From positions 12,612 to 76,611 of IMG/VR virus record IMGVR_UViG_3300032225_001769: a stretch of 64,000 nt of DNA, one strand, 5' to 3'. Every line of letters begins with the position of its first letter. The stretch's first letter is position 1. The DNA comes from a virus (taxonomy: Duplodnaviria > Heunggongvirae > Uroviricota > Caudoviricetes). Of this stretch, positions 1 through 55,561 are shown piece by piece. The position numbers and the translations under genes were made by a program. Below the pieces are notes generated by a model, which saw nothing but the letters and a program-made list of their open reading frames with translations, did no database searches and was not told the origin of the DNA.

Positions 1-106
1 AATCCAATTCAGTCAGACGTTCTGCAAGACTAGAATATTTACTGCTTGCTGGACTAGTAGTTTGACGAACAAATTCAATATATTTACTAGGATCAATATT
101 TGCCAT
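1..106 (-). CDS. mazG: MazG-like nucleoside triphosphate pyrophosphohydrolase, N-terminal part (runs off window)
   Basis: Manual translation MANIDPSKYIEFVRQTTSPASSKYSSLAERLTELD resembles the cyanophage MazG N-terminus. Usual position downstream of g41. Confidence 0.7.
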   Translation of the reverse strand, partial: MANIDPSKYIEFVRQTTSPASSKYSSLAERLTELD

Positions 107-108
107 AT

Positions 109-825
109 TTAAAATTTAAATCCCTCAAATGATTTTTTAGGTTTGTTTTCTTCATAATTATACTCCTCTTCCTGTCCACTGTCAAGTATTTTGATAATCC
201 ACCCTTTATAAGTTTTTCTTTCACCTTTCAATATTCTAGTAAAATAACTTTGCGAAAAATTATTATTTCTACAAAATTTTGCTAGATTTTTTACAATTAA
301 AATAGTTCCATTAATATTTTTTAATTCATAAGTGTTTTTAGAATGTGCTTTAGAAATTTTTTCCTTACAACTTTCATTAAGATTTCTTCCAGTCCTATAA
401 TCAATCATTTTATCAACAGTTTCTTTTGAAAGGATTTTACCTTTATGAGATTTACTTATTTTTTGTTTATGCTCTTCACTTAAAGGTTTTCCAATTAATT
501 TCTGTCTTCTTTTTTCTATAGAACTTTGAGATTGTTTAAACCCTCTAGCACACTTACCACCTTCTTTAATATTAAAACCATTTTCAACAGTATCATAGAA
601 TTTAATCCAATACTGTTCTCTATCATCCAATAGATTTGCATCTTCAACTTCTTCAACTATACCATAAACAAAATTATATTTACTGTATTTTTGTATTGCT
701 CTACTAATTTTAGTTTCATTAATTGTTCTAAAATGACGGAGAACTCTTCTCTGCAATTTTTCTACAGTTTGTCCTATGTATTTTTTATTAGTAGTTAGAT
801 TATTAATACAGTAAATAATTCCCAT
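109..825 (-). CDS. Free-standing GIY-YIG homing endonuclease (Seg-like) with NUMOD3-type repeats; C-terminus is a copy of the gp41 tail
   Basis: GIIY...KYIGQT motif, SEEHKQKISKSHKGK-type repeats, ends ILDSGQEEEYNYEENKPKKSFEGFKF. Start overlaps the g41 stop (TAATG). Confidence 0.9.
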   Translation of the reverse strand: MGIIYCINNLTTNKKYIGQTVEKLQRRVLRHFRTINETKISRAIQKYSKYNFVYGIVEEVEDANLLDDREQYWIKFYDTVENGFNIKEGGKCARGFKQSQSSIEKRRQKLIGKPLSEEHKQKISKSHKGKILSKETVDKMIDYRTGRNLNESCKEKISKAHSKNTYELKNINGTILIVKNLAKFCRNNNFSQSYFTRILKGERKTYKGWIIKILDSGQEEEYNYEENKPKKSFEGFKF

Positions 826-2204
826 TAGAATTTAAATCCTTCGAATGATTTTTTAATTTTTGGTTCATCAGAATAAGCAAATTCATCATCTTTTCCAGAA
901 TCTAAAATATCTTTTTGAGCGGATTGCTCCACATCATAAAGTCTCATCTTTGCTCTATCAATTCCTAAAACGAATCTCTTATATTTATCAGTTGAAGAAT
1001 ATCTATTTTTTAATTGTTTCACCATAATCTGCCCTAGACCTTCAAGTTCCTCCGTACTAATCAAAGCAAACATAAGGTCGGCAGTAGCAGGAAGACCAAA
1101 GGACTCACTAGTATCGGTTAATTCTGGATCAGAAGAACCAAAACCGCTTCGGGTAGTTTGTGTGGCACTTACAATCGGAACATTAAACTCAACTGCTAGT
1201 CCCCGAAGTTCTTCTGCAATTGATTTAATATATGAGTAAGAATTGACAGAACTATTTGCTTTATGTCTAGAAGAAGCACAGATATTGAGGTAGTCAATAA
1301 AAATAATATCAGGTCTAAATGATTTCTTAAGGGAAAGTTCGTTAAGAAGTGCCTTGAAATGTCCAGAGTGTGCCGAAGCAGTTGGATATTCTTTAATTAT
1401 AAGAGTTCCCTGTGTTTTCTTAGATAGACTCATTATCTTATTTTCAAATGCCGAACGTTGGAGATCAACCAATTGTTGAATTGGCACATTAAGAAGGTTT
1501 GCATCAATTCTTTCCGCAATCCTCTCTTCTGCCATTTCAAGAGTGATATAGAGTACGTTCTTGCCTTGTAGCAATGCTGCACTAGCAACATGGCACATGA
1601 ATAGAGATTTTCCTACACCTGTACCAGCAAGGGCAATATTTAAAGTCTTATTGGGCAATCCACCTTTAGTGATTTTGTTGAAATACTCCAAGTCAAATTC
1701 AATTTTATCTTCTTTACGATGATAAAATTCATAACGTTCCCCGTAATTCTGAAGATAGTCATGCCCGATGTTATTATCAAAAGATACTGCTAGAGCATCG
1801 GAAAGAATACTTGGAATTGCGTCACGAGTTTTTTTTCCATCATTACCATCGGCAATATGAATTGATTCCATTAGAGCAAGATAAATTGCTCTGTCACGAC
1901 ACCACTTCTCAGTAGTATCAAGTAACCAATTCTTTTCTACTACTGAATTATTAAGGTTTTCGCATATTTCACGAATATCTTTAATATCAGTTTCAGTTAA
2001 ATCAGTACGGTTTTCAATCTCAATACCAAGTGCTTCTTTAGTAATTGTGGAATTATACTTTACAATGAATTTAACAACTTCTTCAAAGACTATTTTTTCT
2101 GATTTTTGCTCAAAATATTCTGGTTGTATGAAAGGTATAACTTTCCTAGAATAATTTTCATCATATACCAAATTTCTTAGAATCGTAAGTTCAAGTCTTT
2201 CCAT
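825..2204 (-). CDS. gp41: DnaB-like replicative helicase gp41
   Basis: Walker A AGTGVGKS, FIDYL Walker B, SATQTTR motif, 459 aa. Confidence 0.97.
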   Translation of the reverse strand: MERLELTILRNLVYDENYSRKVIPFIQPEYFEQKSEKIVFEEVVKFIVKYNSTITKEALGIEIENRTDLTETDIKDIREICENLNNSVVEKNWLLDTTEKWCRDRAIYLALMESIHIADGNDGKKTRDAIPSILSDALAVSFDNNIGHDYLQNYGERYEFYHRKEDKIEFDLEYFNKITKGGLPNKTLNIALAGTGVGKSLFMCHVASAALLQGKNVLYITLEMAEERIAERIDANLLNVPIQQLVDLQRSAFENKIMSLSKKTQGTLIIKEYPTASAHSGHFKALLNELSLKKSFRPDIIFIDYLNICASSRHKANSSVNSYSYIKSIAEELRGLAVEFNVPIVSATQTTRSGFGSSDPELTDTSESFGLPATADLMFALISTEELEGLGQIMVKQLKNRYSSTDKYKRFVLGIDRAKMRLYDVEQSAQKDILDSGKDDEFAYSDEPKIKKSFEGFKF

Positions 2205-2212
2205 TGTTTTCT

Positions 2213-2758
2213 TTAAAGATTTTTTTTATGATGTGGTACGTCAAATACAAAAGTAATTCTAACGTTATCGCCAATATTTACTGCCTTGTGCGGAAGTTTA
2301 TTATTGAACCAAAAAAGTGTTCCAGGTTCAATAATAATAGTTTCATCACCAACAGTATACTCATATTTTCCCTGAATTGAAAGATGATATCTATCTTTTG
2401 TAAGATAGTATTTTCCCTCATCAATATGAGAACCTACGCTTTCATTTATGGGAAGTGCAAGAAATCCACATCTTCTAAGTTTTTTAAATTTGCCATTTAT
2501 AAACTTAAGAATTTCGGTATGTCTTTCATATGCTGGCGTTTTAATACAAATTTCAGTATCTCCAACATATTCATTTTCTTTAGTAATTCCTCCCATAATT
2601 AATTGAAGAACATCTGCAGTTACAAGATATTTTGTTGGATCTTGCTGTTCAGTATTCTCAATATTTTTTTGGGATCCCCAATCTTCTGGATACTGTTTTA
2701 GTTGTTCTAGTATTTTAGATACATCAACATTAGTTTCTATAATTCTGATGCTATTCAT
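2213..2758 (-). CDS. 2OG-Fe(II) oxygenase, aspartyl/asparaginyl beta-hydroxylase-like
   Basis: HxD (SHIDEG), distal His (NNKLPHKAVN) and RITFVFD strand. Confidence 0.8.
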   Translation of the reverse strand: MNSIRIIETNVDVSKILEQLKQYPEDWGSQKNIENTEQQDPTKYLVTADVLQLIMGGITKENEYVGDTEICIKTPAYERHTEILKFINGKFKKLRRCGFLALPINESVGSHIDEGKYYLTKDRYHLSIQGKYEYTVGDETIIIEPGTLFWFNNKLPHKAVNIGDNVRITFVFDVPHHKKNL

Positions 2759-3765
2759 ACCCCATAACTATATTCACCTTTAGCAATGACATCAAGTTTT
2801 TGCATTACCTCATCAGTAAAATAAGTTTCTGGTTCTTTTAAAATTTGTTTGGCATAGATTTTCTTACCATCAATTTCATATCGACCCGCTGTATTCTTCC
2901 ACATTCCACCAATTTCACCAAGTTCAAGAAGACCATAATAACGGTCAAGACCTCGTTCATCGTAGAATAACCGAATTTCTACTTGTTGATTCTCTTTGCT
3001 TAAACGTGATTTTTGAGTTTTTGCTCTAATTATATTCCCAATCACTTCCGTACCATCCTTTTCCTTAGACTTAGAAAGATAAATGATTGTTGATGCTGAA
3101 TACATCAATCCAGATCCACCTGACATTTGCTTACCACCATAAAGACTCATACTTTCATAGGTGTGATTTGTCACGAGCATTGGTATTTTTGCCTGACCCA
3201 ATTTAAGAGTCAACATTCTAAAGGCACCCTTAATTAGTTGTGCCTTAGTCATATCACGAGTATCTTTCTCGGCAAGTGTATCTGTAATTTCTTTATTAGT
3301 AGAAAGCATACCCAAAGAGTCCAGTACAAACATACAAGGTCGTCTTTCGTCTTTAGATTTTTTCAAATATAAATCAACTGCCTTCAGAGTCTTATTGCGA
3401 AAATCTTCAATCGTGACTACATTGACAACCACCAAACGAGTTGTGTCAATTCCCCTACTTTCCAAAAGGGATTTTGTGATTGCTGCTTCAGTATCAAAGT
3501 ACAGACAATATCCAGTAGGATTATTTTCAAGGAAATTCTTAACGACGGCAAGACTGAAGAAAGTTTTTCCAGTAGAAGTTTCACCTGCAATTGCAGTAAT
3601 TTTATTGCCAGATACCCCACCAAATATACTCCCAGATACAAGAGCGTTAAAAATGTAGCTACCAGTATCCACAAAAGTTTCAGTTTCATTAATCTCTGAT
3701 GCGAGTTGTGTATATTCTCCACCAATTTCCTTCACTATGTCACGCAAAAAACTTAAGTCGTCCAT
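2755..3765 (-). CDS. uvsX: RecA-like recombinase UvsX
   Basis: Walker A GETSTGKT, VLDSLGML, SGGSGLMY. Confidence 0.96.
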   Translation of the reverse strand: MDDLSFLRDIVKEIGGEYTQLASEINETETFVDTGSYIFNALVSGSIFGGVSGNKITAIAGETSTGKTFFSLAVVKNFLENNPTGYCLYFDTEAAITKSLLESRGIDTTRLVVVNVVTIEDFRNKTLKAVDLYLKKSKDERRPCMFVLDSLGMLSTNKEITDTLAEKDTRDMTKAQLIKGAFRMLTLKLGQAKIPMLVTNHTYESMSLYGGKQMSGGSGLMYSASTIIYLSKSKEKDGTEVIGNIIRAKTQKSRLSKENQQVEIRLFYDERGLDRYYGLLELGEIGGMWKNTAGRYEIDGKKIYAKQILKEPETYFTDEVMQKLDVIAKGEYSYGV

Positions 3766-3766
3766 T

Positions 3767-3904
3767 TCATTTCTCCTCTGATTTTTGATTGTTAATATAA
3801 TTCATTTTAAAATCCCTAAGTTTTTGATATAGTGCAGTGTCTCCGCCAAGAAGCATTGCATTGATAATTGTATTTAATTCCCCTTCATTAATAGGAAGTT
3901 CCAT
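3767..3904 (-). CDS. Small conserved hypothetical protein (45 aa, not in ORF track)
   Basis: MELPINEGELNTIINAMLLGGDTALYQKLRDFKMNYINNQKSEEK. Start overlaps the g43B stop (TAATG) and it fills the g43-uvsX gap. Confidence 0.75.
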   Translation of the reverse strand: MELPINEGELNTIINAMLLGGDTALYQKLRDFKMNYINNQKSEEK

Positions 3905-5250
3905 TAGGTAAAAAATGAATCTAAGTTTACAGTATATTCAGTTTTCCATCCAATAGAATCCAGAATAGATTTCAGTGGATCGAGAAAACTCTTTTCAAAT
4001 TGTAATTCATAATCAATGTATTTGTCAAGACCAAGTTCTGTAGGAAAGTCTTGAATAAAAGAAATAACATTTTCACGAATAATATTTGGTTTTTTGAGGT
4101 AGATAAACTTAATCTTTTCACCATTATTAATGAGTGAATATTTGTGAGTAAGATTTTTATCCTTAATATAATGATTAAACAAAAGTGCTCCGCGAACATG
4201 AATTGGAGTTCTTTCCTTATAAATGTCAGAATGAGATCTATATTTACGAATATCAGATGCTGTACGTGGAAATGCAATCTGCTCCGGAGAAAGTTTTCTG
4301 AATTTAGTACGACACTTATCAATATAAGTAATCACTTCACTCTCTGTACCACTCATCATAATCTTTAGACCGTCTTTAATCATCTGACGGCAGGGAGCAG
4401 GAGTAGAAGATTTAACTGCCTCAATTCCCATCATTTTGAGTTTAGGTTCCTCATAACGAACTCCTTCGCTATCCCAGACATTCAGAATGTAACGCTTTTT
4501 GGCAGTCCAGATTCCACGATCCGCAATGTTTTCCCTTTTCATTTGCATCTTCTGATCATAGGCATTTACATAATCTGCCAGTTCTTGGTAGCAACCTTCA
4601 ATATACTTTTCAAGTTCCACCTGAGCGATCTTATCAAGGAATGAGACAATGCCCTCAGTAGTTTTCTCTCTTCCCTTGTATACAGTCTCCACCAAAGGGC
4701 CCATATTAAGATAAATGGAATCGGTATCAGAAGCAATAACATAGTCAACATCATTTGTCTTAAGAACTTTATTTAAATACTTATTAATTTTTTCTTCAAT
4801 CCAACGAATTGAAACTTGCCCCGAAAGAGTAATTGCCTCCGCATTTGCTAGTTTAAAATAACGGAAGTACTGATTGCCAATAGCACCATAAGCACTATTA
4901 AGTTGAATCTTCCTTGCCATTTGGATATTGTTGCACCTTGCAATCTCTTTTTCCAGTGCTGTTGTCTTTTTCTTTTCATATTCCTGTTTTGCAGCAATCA
5001 TCTTTTTCTTATAGATGGTGCGATCATTATATATTTTCTCCATCAGTTCGGGAAGAAATCCCTTTACCCTGCGGTAGAGTGCCCCATTCGCAGTCATAGT
5101 AAGATTTACTTTTTTTAGTGGTGTTAAATCCAACTCTTGTTTGAGAAGTTTATCTACACTCACCTTTGTAGTAAGTTCTCTTACCTGTTTAAGTGCCTCA
5201 AGTTCTTCTACAATTTCCTCACGGGACATTTTACGAATATCTTTCCACAT
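3904..5250 (-). CDS. gp43: Family B DNA polymerase gp43, C-terminal subunit (43B: fingers, palm motifs B and C, thumb)
   Basis: KIQLNSAYG (motif B), ASDTDS (motif C), KKRY, clamp-binding tail NLDSFF. ATG at 5250 has GGAG 7 nt upstream, preferred over the GTG at 5292. Confidence 0.93.
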   Translation of the reverse strand: MWKDIRKMSREEIVEELEALKQVRELTTKVSVDKLLKQELDLTPLKKVNLTMTANGALYRRVKGFLPELMEKIYNDRTIYKKKMIAAKQEYEKKKTTALEKEIARCNNIQMARKIQLNSAYGAIGNQYFRYFKLANAEAITLSGQVSIRWIEEKINKYLNKVLKTNDVDYVIASDTDSIYLNMGPLVETVYKGREKTTEGIVSFLDKIAQVELEKYIEGCYQELADYVNAYDQKMQMKRENIADRGIWTAKKRYILNVWDSEGVRYEEPKLKMMGIEAVKSSTPAPCRQMIKDGLKIMMSGTESEVITYIDKCRTKFRKLSPEQIAFPRTASDIRKYRSHSDIYKERTPIHVRGALLFNHYIKDKNLTHKYSLINNGEKIKFIYLKKPNIIRENVISFIQDFPTELGLDKYIDYELQFEKSFLDPLKSILDSIGWKTEYTVNLDSFFT

Positions 5251-5251
5251 C

Positions 5252-5335
5252 TCAATTCTCCATAATTTTAGTATGCTTTTTGCGGTTTTCACTCATAGTA
5301 ATAATCTGCAAGTTGTCTTCGTGATGCTTTCCTCC
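5252..5335 (-). pseudogene. C-terminal remnant of an HNH endonuclease gene between 43A and 43B
   Basis: Translates GGKHHEDNLQIITMSENRKKHTKIMEN*, the GGxHxxxNLQxxTxxEN half of an HNH motif. No start codon precedes the motif. Confidence 0.75.
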
Positions 5336-5337
5336 TT

Positions 5338-5452
5338 ATAAGATGAGGATATTCTACAACATTTTCTCCAATTCCGCAATACGATTATTAAGTTCATCTT
5401 TTTCTATAAGCGTTTCTGGAGATATTGCATATTGCATAATAAGATGAGGATA
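5338..5452. repeat. 14-bp exact direct repeat ATAAGATGAGGATA (5338-5351 and 5439-5452)
   Basis: Read directly. One copy encodes YPHLI of motif A, the other lies just after the 43A stop. Confidence 0.9.
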
Positions 5453-6631
5453 AAGTGAATTCAAATCGAAATTGACAACATAATCATAAACACCAGGAAT
5501 AGGTTCTTTTACATAAGCACCAGCATACTTGGAATCTTTATCCGTTTTTTCCTTAGGAGGAATTACAATATTCCTTTTCTTCAGATAATTGTAGATGATC
5601 GTATCCCACATACGAACCTGAAAGAATACATCCTCATAGTTTACTTTGGCGTCATATGCCATCGTAAGAGCAAGTTCAATCAGTTTCATCTTGTCTTCCA
5701 AACGGTCAACAAGTTCTACGTCCTTAATGTTATACTCTACAAATTTCTGCCAACCTTTAGTATAGAAGTCTTTGAATGTATCAAATTCACTGTGATCCAA
5801 CTTTTGTTGCTGCAATTCCACATTTGCAATATGGTCAAGACGATATGATTCCTGATTTGTATATGTAAATTTCTTATACAAATTAAGATAGTCTAATTGG
5901 GAAATTCCACCAATATCATAAGAAATGTGCTTGCGACCAGAAATATAAGTCTCATCTTCGGTTACAAGACCCCAAGGTGAAAGTCTTTTCATCAATTTCT
6001 CACCAAGAATTCTATCGAGGCGACGAACAATATAAGGAATATCATAAAGTTGATTATTCCAACCGGTTACAATTTCTGGGGTATCGTTCATCCACCAATG
6101 AATAAAGTCATTGAGCATACTATATTCATCAGAAAATTGCCGATATTCAACATTTTTTTGATTATTTTTAAATGGCCCTACACCCCAAGTTGTAATTTTC
6201 TTTGTATTATAATTCTGAATTGTAATCAGAAGCATTTCTTCAGCAGCACTTTCTACATCAGGAAATCCATTTTCAGATGCCACCTCAATATCAATTGTTA
6301 CTAATTTGATTTTGGAAATATCAAATTTGATTTGATCTTCAGGATATTTTTCAGAAATATATTGATAAACGTATCTATCATTACCATAAATCTTGAAACT
6401 TTCTACATCACTGTATTTTTTAATGAATTCTCGACAATCACGTACAGATCCTGGTTGAATGGATTGTACATATTCACCCTCTAACGTGACGTATTCTGTT
6501 TGTTTTTTGGAGGGGACAAAAAAAGTTGGAGAAAACTTCTCACGAGTCATGAAACTGCTTCCATTTTCATAACCACGAATTAAGAAATAATCTCCGATCA
6601 TTTGAACGTTTGTATAGAAGCGATATGACAT
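5354..6631 (-). CDS. gp43: Family B DNA polymerase gp43, N-terminal subunit (43A: exonuclease plus palm motif A)
   Basis: ExoI DIE, GWN...YD, YNIKDV, motif A DLNSLYP, then stop after SPETLIEKDELNNRIAELEKML. Confidence 0.95.
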   Translation of the reverse strand: MSYRFYTNVQMIGDYFLIRGYENGSSFMTREKFSPTFFVPSKKQTEYVTLEGEYVQSIQPGSVRDCREFIKKYSDVESFKIYGNDRYVYQYISEKYPEDQIKFDISKIKLVTIDIEVASENGFPDVESAAEEMLLITIQNYNTKKITTWGVGPFKNNQKNVEYRQFSDEYSMLNDFIHWWMNDTPEIVTGWNNQLYDIPYIVRRLDRILGEKLMKRLSPWGLVTEDETYISGRKHISYDIGGISQLDYLNLYKKFTYTNQESYRLDHIANVELQQQKLDHSEFDTFKDFYTKGWQKFVEYNIKDVELVDRLEDKMKLIELALTMAYDAKVNYEDVFFQVRMWDTIIYNYLKKRNIVIPPKEKTDKDSKYAGAYVKEPIPGVYDYVVNFDLNSLYPHLIMQYAISPETLIEKDELNNRIAELEKML

Positions 6632-12287: not shown

Positions 12288-12713
12288 TCAAAAACAAAAT
12301 TTACGAAGATACTTGATTGTTTCCTTTGGTTTATCTTCCAACCAATATGCTTCGTGCTCCAGTCTCCGATTGTCTTTTTTCTTGACTAGAGACAATGAAT
12401 TGTCGAGATATTGTAACTTTTCTGCAGTCAAAAGCATTCTGTTTAATGGAATTCCAATCGGTTTCATACCAATACACGATTGCACTACATGAACCGCTTC
12501 ATGATAAACAGTATCATTTAGATTCTTATTTGCATTTCCCCTATTCATAAGGGTCTTGGTGCAAACGAAAAATGTTTTATTGTCATTGATAATCCCACCA
12601 TCATAATTGGTATTAGAGCACCAGGAGATATTTTCCTTGACAGTAAAGTGTGCCTTTGCAATAAGATCTAAGATTTGCTTACCTTCTGGACTCAAGTAAT
12701 ATGTAAAAATCAT
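12288..12713 (-). CDS. Hypothetical protein with HExxH (zincin-like) motif
   Basis: TVYHEAVHVVQ and downstream EHEAY. Confidence 0.65.
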   Translation of the reverse strand: MIFTYYLSPEGKQILDLIAKAHFTVKENISWCSNTNYDGGIINDNKTFFVCTKTLMNRGNANKNLNDTVYHEAVHVVQSCIGMKPIGIPLNRMLLTAEKLQYLDNSLSLVKKKDNRRLEHEAYWLEDKPKETIKYLRKFCF

Positions 12714-13378
12714 TAGGAAAAATCTGAATCCGGTTCCAATGCAATATAATAGTTCAGATTATACTTTGTATTGGTGAATTTTGACAAAAGTTTTTTTGAC
12801 ACAACAACGTTATATGCACCAGAAATAATTTTAATATTCTCTACTTTAAAGTTGAAGGTAAATTCCAAATCAGTTTCACCAACTACGATGGAATATTCGT
12901 TGGAAGTATCATTTTTCTTATCACGAACTACCAATCGAATCACACCAGATTCTCCAACTGCAGAAAGGTCGGGAAGTTGATAAACAGACGCTGCCTTAAT
13001 GAGTTTTTCCAAAGAAGCACTCTCAAGTTGAAAGCAAACATCTTGCGAAGGAAGTGCAATTTCTTTATCTGGGGGAGAAATAATCACATTAGGATCAGCA
13101 TAAAAATACTTTACCCTACGCTTACCCTCACGAATAGTGATATGAGAATCGTTAGTAAAATCTAGTTCAGGATCCTGATGAAGACTGAGACCATTTAGAA
13201 ACTGATTCAGATCATAAATTGCAAAGTTGCGGGGAAACTCTTCGACAATATCTGCTTCGGCAAGAATATTTTTTGCCACAGAAATAGTACGAAGTTTATT
13301 ACCTTGCTTTACCAGAATTGAATTATTGATTCCGGCAAAGTTCTTAAGAATAGTCAGTGTGTTATCAGAGAGTTTCAT
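12713..13378 (-). CDS. gp45: Sliding clamp gp45
   Basis: MKLSDNTLTILKNFAGINNSI, AIYDLNQFL, YYIALE. Confidence 0.96.
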   Translation of the reverse strand: MKLSDNTLTILKNFAGINNSILVKQGNKLRTISVAKNILAEADIVEEFPRNFAIYDLNQFLNGLSLHQDPELDFTNDSHITIREGKRRVKYFYADPNVIISPPDKEIALPSQDVCFQLESASLEKLIKAASVYQLPDLSAVGESGVIRLVVRDKKNDTSNEYSIVVGETDLEFTFNFKVENIKIISGAYNVVVSKKLLSKFTNTKYNLNYYIALEPDSDFS

Positions 13379-54010: not shown

Positions 54011-55561
54011 TTAAAATTCCAGGATAATTTTAATGTCTTCTTTTTGTCGTGAACTTCTGGAGACTAGAGCTCTATTATCGATGTAAATAATATCTCCCGA
54101 TGATTTATTTATCTCGGGATTTGCCAATCCTTTTGTGAAAGTGACACCGAGATCTATGACTTTATTTCCCACAGTAATTTTATTTGTTGGGGTTGGATCA
54201 CCAAAAGTTGTATCAATAGATCCTGAAAAGGGTGAAATTGTTCCACCAGATGAACTAAATGTCAATACTTCCGCATCATTGCTTACAGTATTATAATCTG
54301 TCTGATCACCAGAGTTGCTATTAGATCCGAAAAATAATGATCTATCTTGATAATATTTTAAAACCTGAGTTTCACTATCATAAGAAGCAACATATCCCCT
54401 TGCAGTTCCACCACTAACTGTTTGTGTAATTCTATTACCAATTGTGGGAGTGCCAGAAGATAATTTCATTGAATATAATGATGAATATTGATTATCTTTA
54501 AAAATGGAATTACTTGAATATGTAGTTGGATTTTTTAAGATACCAATTTGTGAAAAAGTAGTGTCTGTTGGAAAATCTTTGGTAGAATCATCAAATCGTG
54601 CATAAATTAAAACTTTATCAGTACCCAATTCGGCATAAATGTCATATCCATGACCTTTAGATGGTGGAATAATTGGTATAAGTTTTGCTGGATTGCTAAT
54701 ACTTGAAGGTTGGACTGATCCTAAATCAACTATACCATAGGTATATCCAGAACCTCCAGAAACCACGGTAGTTGAAACTATTACACCATTTTCAGTTTCG
54801 ACTAAAACTTTGCCCCCAGTTCCATCGCCAAGAATATTACAAGTTCCACTACTATATCCAATTCCACCATTTTCAATGTAAACTTTTTTAATCTGATTAT
54901 TGTTTGCAGTGGAATCTCCATTTTCTCTGACTCTAACTATTTCAGAATCGATAGTTGTCGTTGTCCAATCATTAGGAACAACAATATATTCAGTAGAATC
55001 AAATTTAATTACATCTGATGGGGAAATTGTAAAAAGATATTTCCAAATATATCCATCTCCACTCTCTCCAGCTGGAGATGGTTCTACATCTGTAAATTTC
55101 GGTTCGTCTAAAGACCCATTAATTGATGGATTTATACCAGAAGACCCATTATCAATACAGATATAGACCCTATAATCACTATTAATAACATAATAGTTTG
55201 CATCATAAAGTCTATTTTGTTTACTTATTGGCGTTTGATTTGAAATAGTGTAATCATGCCTATACATTTCATATTTTGTATTGACAGACCATTCATTCTT
55301 TCTTATAATTCTTCTAACATTTGAACTGGTAATTCTTTTACCAAAGATAGATGTGTCACGATAATGACTCAGATAACTAAGATTATCAATTGGTGATGGT
55401 GGATCAATATTCCATGTAGTACTTCTTCCAAATCCAACTTCTGTGGGATTTGTCAATCCAAGAAAAACATAATATGCATTATCTTTCGTAGGATCTGTTA
55501 TAGATTCTATAAAATTAGATGCATTTAAAATTCTAAACTGATCTGTTACAACTGCGGCCAT
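54011..55561 (-). CDS. gp8: Baseplate wedge subunit gp8
   Basis: YYVINSDYRVYICIDNG, DGYIWKYLFTI, IIPPSKGHG, RQKEDIKIILEF. Confidence 0.93.
   Translation of the reverse strand: MAAVVTDQFRILNASNFIESITDPTKDNAYYVFLGLTNPTEVGFGRSTTWNIDPPSPIDNLSYLSHYRDTSIFGKRITSSNVRRIIRKNEWSVNTKYEMYRHDYTISNQTPISKQNRLYDANYYVINSDYRVYICIDNGSSGINPSINGSLDEPKFTDVEPSPAGESGDGYIWKYLFTISPSDVIKFDSTEYIVVPNDWTTTTIDSEIVRVRENGDSTANNNQIKKVYIENGGIGYSSGTCNILGDGTGGKVLVETENGVIVSTTVVSGGSGYTYGIVDLGSVQPSSISNPAKLIPIIPPSKGHGYDIYAELGTDKVLIYARFDDSTKDFPTDTTFSQIGILKNPTTYSSNSIFKDNQYSSLYSMKLSSGTPTIGNRITQTVSGGTARGYVASYDSETQVLKYYQDRSLFFGSNSNSGDQTDYNTVSNDAEVLTFSSSGGTISPFSGSIDTTFGDPTPTNKITVGNKVIDLGVTFTKGLANPEINKSSGDIIYIDNRALVSRSSRQKEDIKIILEF

Follow-up and report, generated by a model that had tools for sequence, protein, structure and literature searches.

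A homing endonuclease gene carried with a substitute helicase gene end at the g41-mazG locus of a tailed phage

Two helicase gene ends at one locus

This account concerns a GIY-YIG homing endonuclease gene that lies between g41, the replicative helicase gene, and mazG in a tailed phage known from IMG/VR record IMGVR_UViG_3300032225_001769. The source record is 140.6 kilobases (kb) long and about 65% complete; the window, the whole stretch of DNA analysed here, is 64 kb of it. The genes of the locus are read from the minus strand. The first is g41 (825-2204), an open reading frame (ORF) of 459 amino acids for a DnaB-like helicase (Pfam DnaB_C, 76.3 bits), whose product is 85% identical to that of Synechococcus phage S-SRM01, the closest cultured relative. 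The gene is a hybrid: its body is of the resident type, and its 3' end is one that is linked to the nuclease. The nuclease gene follows (109-825, minus strand, 238 amino acids), and its ATG overlaps the g41 stop in the sequence TAATG (827-823, minus strand), a direct reading of the letters that indicates translational coupling and that recurs in every examined member of the nuclease family. The nuclease frame contains no earlier stop than the one at 111-109, which lies 2 nucleotides (nt) before the mazG ATG (106-104). Only the 5' part of mazG (2-106, minus strand) falls within the window, which ends inside the gene; the whole gene (135 amino acids) is intact in the record, and the MazG Pfam family is found at the corresponding place in relatives. 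The nuclease gene is present in a single copy in the phage's own record. Assembly artefact or chimera can be ruled out, as the same layout occurs in more than 20 independent metagenomic contigs. An Rfam scan of positions 1-3000 gave no group I intron or other RNA family at threshold, only a sub-threshold chance match to a small nucleolar RNA model.

What makes the locus unusual is that the two proteins share an ending. A BLASTP comparison of the g41 and nuclease products yields a single significant match, at the C-termini, with 18/27 residues identical (E 3e-7). The upstream copy, of the ...GKDDEF... type, comprises the last 27 codons and stop of g41 (825-908, minus strand) and reads in phase from the nuclease-linked sequence described below to the normal ...F-E-G-F-K-F end of the helicase. 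The downstream copy, of the ...GQEEEY... type, has 26 codons and a stop (109-189, minus strand), and stands in frame as nuclease residues 213-238. The first-pass annotation of this DNA had noticed both helicase-type C-termini and had described the nuclease as lacking a stop of its own before the tail, with an ATG overlapping the g41 stop; all of this holds on the minus strand, and the recoding it reported for the shared ILDS residues (ATT TTA GAT TCT against ATA CTT GAC AGT) consists of synonymous differences exactly as claimed.

Which of the two ends is the resident one can be read from phages that lack the nuclease. S-SRM01 has no nuclease here, and its g41, with a QEEEY-type tail, runs directly into mazG; S-SKS1 is arranged likewise. 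In dozens of nuclease-free contigs the protein tail of g41 is 88-96% identical to the downstream copy, and several of them have the identical junction to mazG. The same is seen in the DNA: the downstream tail matches the true g41 tails of nuclease-free contigs L036-L042 at 74-77 of 81 nt (91-95%), whereas the upstream tail matches nuclease-free tails at only 56-63 of 84 nt (about 70%). The close matches of the upstream tail are to nuclease-bearing contigs (83/84 for L004, 79/84 for L005), and the KDDEF type is found only beside the nuclease. The first-pass annotation had taken the QEEEY tail as ancestral, and had named nuclease-free relatives with a KDDEF tail as the observation that would speak against it; it is the QEEEY type that such relatives carry. 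The reverse polarity, in which the KDDEF-type tail would be the resident end and the QEEEY-type tail would have arrived with the nuclease, has nothing in its favor beyond the symmetry of the repeat. It is refuted by the type, the 91-95% DNA identity and the mazG junction of the nuclease-free relatives, and by the restriction of the KDDEF type to the nuclease's neighborhood; we give it almost no credence.

The other carriers agree. In ten of them the displaced tail resembles the true tail of whichever nuclease-free contig has the most similar mazG: 98% for the pair L006/L112, 94% for L016/L172 and the 91-95% already given for this phage. The replacement tails, by comparison, form one related group, all of them linked to the nuclease.

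The nuclease itself is identified by Pfam, by alignment with I-TevI and by its invariant catalytic residues. GIY-YIG (PF01541) is matched over residues 1-79 at 34.3 bits (cut-off 22.6) and NUMOD3 at 22.9 bits (cut-off 20.4); the protein aligns with the structures of the I-TevI catalytic domain, 1LN0/1MK0, at E 1.5e-6; and Y5, Y16, G18, R27, E70 and N85 are invariant in 33 homologues. An AlphaFold2 model places the catalytic domain at residues 1-90 (556-825, minus strand; predicted local distance difference test, pLDDT, 83-96), followed by a NUMOD3-type helical linker (residues 100-161) and a C-terminal DNA-binding domain (residues 166-213; the two together at 187-528, minus strand). The C-terminal domain is compact, with a pLDDT of about 88-91 and a last strand at residues 209-213; the part of the tail at residues 218-238 is predicted to be disordered (pLDDT <50). 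Distant homologues stop 3-8 residues past a K-G-W/M/Y-x-I-K motif. Since they end there and the last strand of the model lies at 209-213, the fusion point coincides with the natural end of the nuclease fold. With its catalytic residues, its linker-joined DNA-binding module and its own start outside any intron or intein, the predicted protein is a free-standing GIY-YIG endonuclease. It resembles I-TevI, the endonuclease of the T4 td intron, in its catalytic residues, long linker and small C-terminal DNA-binding domain; it differs in that the element here is not intron-encoded, and in that only the catalytic domain (residues 4-88) aligned significantly, at the E value given above. Cultured phages contain no close homologue, the best being 34% identical.

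Extent and transfer of the cassette

About 25 viral contigs carry the nuclease, and more than 100 otherwise similar g41-mazG loci lack it. All homologues of 63-98% identity that can be placed lie between g41 and mazG. This presence and absence allows the sequence that goes with the nuclease to be delimited, by comparing 15 unique nuclease-bearing alleles with 36-105 unique nuclease-free ones. Positions that are fixed in carriers and rare in empty alleles fall into two clusters: one at -89 to -60 from the I-L-D codon, the other at the I-L-D codons themselves. Among the compared alleles, none lies further 5' than -89. In this phage the linked block 5' of the duplicated tail occupies 909-997 (minus strand) and reads ...RY-SSTDKYKRFVL... 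in place of ...RY-NDPTvFKRFVv...; the -89 to -60 cluster corresponds to SSTDKY in place of NDPTvF. The first-pass annotation had proposed a cassette of a replacement g41 3' end plus endonuclease inserted at the ILDSG codons. The core of that proposal stands; its extent has to be revised, as the replacement begins sharply 89 nt upstream of I-L-D.

A second comparison catches the cassette in different surroundings. From a point about 196 nt 5' of the I-L-D codon through the final codon of the nuclease, this phage and contig L004 are 98-100% identical; the block they have in common measures about 900 nt (the last ~280 nt of g41 plus the nuclease). Outside it the g41 bodies are 72-86% identical and the mazG genes cannot be aligned, and on the mazG side the identity drops exactly after CTTGAC, where the displaced tail begins. 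Contigs L009 and L013 give the same pattern as L004. A shared block of this kind in differing flanks means that the cassette moves as a unit, leaving the recipient's own tail behind. The unit of g41 3' end and nuclease has evidently passed between backgrounds by lateral transfer, and recently. Near-identical cassettes in different backgrounds mark g41-mazG as a hotspot of exchange; intense exchange of mazG among cyanophages has been reported earlier (PMC2297514).

One contig, L096 (IMGVR_UViG_3300043412_000031, about 1260-1700), has a nuclease-free g41 with the nuclease-linked upstream block. Its near-identity to the carrier L005 ends about 14 nt short of the I-L-D codon, and a resident-type tail with the promoter-like element follows. 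It could be the product of partial co-conversion, or of precise loss of the nuclease between the two tail copies.

The linked block also contains, at 982-989 (minus strand), the motif GATAAATA, tentatively likened to T4 and cyanophage late promoters, 156 nt before the nuclease ATG. Its ATAAATA core is depleted in the window (17 copies observed, 39 +/- 6 expected); 16 of the 17 copies lie on the coding strand, mostly 17-36 nt 5' of ORF starts. The motif is missing from SSTDIY variants of the block. It might serve as a late promoter for the nuclease.

A promoter-like element within the displaced tail

The displaced tail carries more than the end of a protein. A consensus scan of the window places TTGACA at 185-180, over the L-D-S codons, and TATAAT at 162-157, over the Y-N codons, with 17 nt between them: a sigma-70-type promoter-like element (157-185, minus strand) that matches the consensus at 12/12 positions and lies 5' of mazG. 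The 64 kb contain just one other perfect match, at 55281-55309 on the plus strand, the strand opposite to nearly all genes. A second promoter-like match on the minus strand of g41, TTGATA-17-TATGAT (933-961, 10/12), covers the G-I-D-R...L-Y-D codons and is probably a side effect of conserved protein sequence.

The element is conserved where the tail is resident, and is lacking where the tail has been replaced. In 87 unique nuclease-free alleles it scores 9-12/12, with 80 of the 87 at 11 or more and the spacing always 17 nt. The 15 unique sequences behind the nuclease score 10-12/12, and these include fused forms, the stop-broken form of L017 and forms without any tail, in which the element reads TTGACT or TTGACC, 17 nt, TAAAAT or TAGAAT. 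The replacement tails, of which 15 are unique, all fall at only 5-7/12; that of this phage is recoded and has no internal promoter. Codon choice in empty alleles is strict: 103 of 104 use GAC for the Asp of I-L-D, an amino acid encoded mostly by GAT at its other conserved columns in g41, and 104 of 104 use TAT for the Tyr within the element. The constraint thus acts on DNA, as the element is conserved beyond coding needs and persists after the peptide has been lost. Probably it is a sigma-70-type promoter that drives mazG; a putative early promoter has been reported for mazG of S-PM2 (PMC2297514).

TTGA(C/T)A-17-TAT(A/G)(A/C)T also occurs in the g41 tails of P-SSM2 (L002), S-SM2 (L093) and Bellamy (L094). 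There the gene after g41 is methyltransferase-like or a small unknown ORF, not mazG. Because it is present with other next genes, the element tracks the end of g41 rather than mazG as such.

The fate of the peptide is more varied than that of the DNA. An intact, fused, in-frame tail with a conserved ...F-x-G-F-K-F ending is found in 39 of 89 protein clusters; in about half of them no intact tail is present. In some the tail is cut by a stop or a frameshift (L017, L088, P0031, P0042, P0053 and P0059): L017 has an in-frame stop within the tail, and L088, whose nuclease is 63% identical, a frameshift before ...FEGFKF. In the many tail-less forms the ORF ends 2-4 codons past L-D and is separated from mazG by a conserved spacer of 37 nt that includes AAGGAG; of the whole region only the -35, the 17 nt, the -10, AAGGAG and the ATG are retained. 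A pattern scan of viral contigs for this spacer turned up one additional tail-less carrier and no nuclease-free genome possessing it. With distant homologues as the root, the nuclease tree has tail-bearing forms at its base, among them P0088, the 63%-identical form with the frameshifted tail.

The first-pass annotation had also suggested that the captured tail might recruit the nuclease to the replisome. Here the acidic and aromatic peptide would be adaptive, docking the nuclease on the replisome partners of gp41 (the clamp, the clamp loader or the loader protein) and favoring cutting or repair at forks. The idea has some attraction: the last 20 residues of T4 gp41 are needed for stimulation of primase by the clamp and clamp loader (PMC3012046), the tail is modeled as a disordered extension that would be free to bind, and it is intact, with its conserved ending, in those 39 clusters. 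Such intact tails are explicable without selection on the peptide, however, if each transfer brings the nuclease a fresh recipient tail and if its coding DNA is under constraint as a promoter and start region. In about half of the clusters the tail is absent or broken while the promoter-like DNA is still kept, and in L005 the tail has drifted more than the adjoining mazG (85% versus 95%), with replacements in the acidic part. A complex predicted between the gp45 clamp trimer (12713-13378) and the 39 C-terminal residues of the nuclease scored 0.27, where the mark was 0.32, and speaks neither for nor against docking. The gp59 loader (PF08993) has no match in the phage's record, about 65% complete, nor in any control genome, so that its absence is uninformative. 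Recruitment by the tail finds no support, given how many clusters lack an intact one, and we regard docking as quite unlikely. The first-pass phrase that the fusion keeps 'coupling to mazG' was right in spirit; the main thing conserved is the promoter-like element, which is retained even where the peptide is broken or deleted.

A nuclease that probably brings a spare gene end

One way to understand these observations is to see the insert as a mobile nuclease cassette that includes a spare end for g41, with the displaced tail persisting as the promoter and start region of mazG and the fused peptide being incidental. We consider this account likely. A free-standing GIY-YIG gene would thereby occupy the coding sequence of an essential gene with neither intron nor intein. 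The cassette would supply a substitute for the last ~58 codons of g41 (997-825), keeping the helicase whole and restoring its conserved ...SF(E/D)GFKF terminus. The nuclease would be translated by re-initiation at the new g41 stop, within TAATG, and probably at a low level, as has been proposed for T4 mobE (PMC2988022). The right edge of the cassette would be set at the resident I-L-D codons, immediately 5' of the promoter written into the resident tail; that tail would remain 3' of the nuclease, and mazG would keep its promoter and start region undamaged. With an in-frame junction and an open tail, translation would continue through it, and the nuclease gains 26 disordered helicase residues as a by-product. 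It is the putative promoter and start region of mazG, not the peptide, that persists, since the element is kept in fused, stop-broken and tail-less forms alike.

Spread would occur by double-strand-break repair, that is by homing, into nuclease-free g41 alleles. The cut predicted in an empty allele lies somewhere from the upstream block to the I-L-D codons; on repair, a carrier template would supply the substitute end together with the nuclease; the displaced tail and mazG would act as the right-hand homology adjoining the break, as exons do for an intron; and each transfer would leave the recipient's own tail behind the nuclease. The substitute end lacks the promoter and differs from empty alleles at the I-L-D codons and in the block 60-89 nt upstream. 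Two uses for these differences are plausible: they would make the carrier allele uncuttable, and the promoter-less end would keep a strong early promoter from driving the nuclease.

The closest known kind of element is the mobile ORF (mORF) gene hybrid of fungal mitochondria, described for atp6 of Allomyces macrogynus and for atp6, atp9, cox2 and nad3 of Glomus sp. (PMC3630166, citing Paquin et al. 1994). There too the 3' part of an essential gene harbors an endonuclease ORF together with a substitute C-terminus in phase with the core, and the element in Glomus atp9 is likewise GIY-YIG. The displaced native end is again the one nearer to element-free relatives: 91-98%, against 64-81% for the inserted copy, in the fungi (PMC3630166), and 91-95% against about 70% here. 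The inserted C-termini of the fungal mORFs are further read as foreign; the replacement end here is strongly diverged and nuclease-linked, and no donor lineage was found in the phages and contigs searched. The differences are several. The host is a phage and not an organelle; the nuclease begins at a start codon of its own that is coupled to the new stop; the displaced native tail is fused in frame to the nuclease C-terminus; the displaced piece is no decaying pseudogene, as the conserved promoter-like element lies in it, along with the start region for the gene that follows; and dozens of natural variants exist, fused, broken and pared down.

Phage systems offer partial likenesses. The free-standing endonucleases of T4, such as SegF, SegG, SegB and MobE, undergo intronless homing (PMC2988022). 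They share with the present case a free-standing GIY-YIG gene between conserved genes, polymorphic for presence at one locus, co-transfer of flanking host sequence, and a start overlapping the upstream stop, as in the UAAUGA of nrdA/mobE (PMC2988022). However, the T4 elements are intergenic and create no duplication, whereas the right junction here lies within the target's coding sequence and the unit always includes a replacement gene end. Phage genes split by endonucleases (nrdA/mobE of Aeh1; split g43) similarly have a homing endonuclease gene inside an essential gene of replication or nucleotide metabolism that still functions. In those cases the host gene is in two pieces that reassemble as proteins; g41 stays in one piece by means of its substitute end. 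A limited search for a phage precedent, through a T4 mobile-element review, a 2023 survey of phage nuclease genes, a cyanomyovirus genome comparison and full-text literature searches, found none.

A spare gene end would then be a third route by which a homing endonuclease can live inside an essential phage gene, besides introns or inteins and gene splitting; the route has so far been described for fungal mitochondria. The conserved promoter-like element found in the last codons of cyanophage g41 would explain both why the displaced end persists and where the insertion lies. The family is abundant in metagenomes, and its fused, broken and pared-down states provide a natural series for how insertions settle.

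Several points weigh against this account or limit it. No nuclease-free lineage that natively has the replacement haplotype was found in the cultured phage records searched or in 80 further contigs, L096 having its upstream block only, so that the replacement end is no more than possibly of foreign origin. Among cultured phages the best match to that end was 72% over 65 residues; the phages in question, S-SM2 and Bellamy, were rejected as donors, as theirs are ordinary NDLS-type alleles. The nuclease tree requires at least eight state changes, with recombination likely, and so gives no firm order to the fused and tail-less forms. In local alignments the tail-less spacer matches the displaced tails no better than it does shuffles, except for one pair (p = 0.03); descent of the spacer from the tail is therefore not demonstrable by sequence. 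The case for a promoter consists of the consensus match and its conservation, part of which may be driven by the protein (L-D ... E-Y-N). Lastly, since the displaced tail keeps everything to the right of the junction, the predicted recognition site must include the left side or the upstream block.

A rival reading concerns where the spare end came from. The first arrival of the nuclease might have duplicated the tail locally, with no foreign phage lineage as its source; the upstream copy would subsequently have diverged where it stood, as selection disfavored self-cutting, repeat-mediated loss and a promoter ahead of the nuclease. This would fit the lack of a native replacement haplotype in the material searched, the single related, nuclease-linked group formed by the replacement tails, and the left junction, which copies a normal overlap of g41 stop and ATG. 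The linked block nevertheless reaches 89 nt past the duplicated part and includes amino-acid changes, and the fungal precedents are read as foreign C-termini (PMC3630166). We think local duplication unlikely; whatever the first origin, the unit is now transferred whole between backgrounds.

The elements of these readings could also be joined into a three-part adaptation. The target would be doubly constrained, as helicase tail and as promoter; the substitute end would be promoter-less and uncuttable; and the captured tail would serve as a docking peptide, or its DNA would retain a half-site over the -35 that acts as an operator, or both. A parallel is I-TevI, which also acts as a repressor, at a site that resembles its homing site. 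We attach only a small probability to the combined scheme; if true, it would couple the replisome to the action of the nuclease or to the expression of mazG.

The neighborhood bears other traces of mobile elements. In S-SRM01 (L001) an annotated homing endonuclease gene (2433-3014) lies between the recombinase gene and the start of g41; the phage studied here has a cupin/2-oxoglutarate-oxygenase-like ORF (2213-2758) in that position. Landing sites seem to exist on both sides of g41. The DNA polymerase gene, g43 (3904-6631, minus strand), is split into ORFs at 5354-6631 and 3904-5292, the latter with a GTG start.

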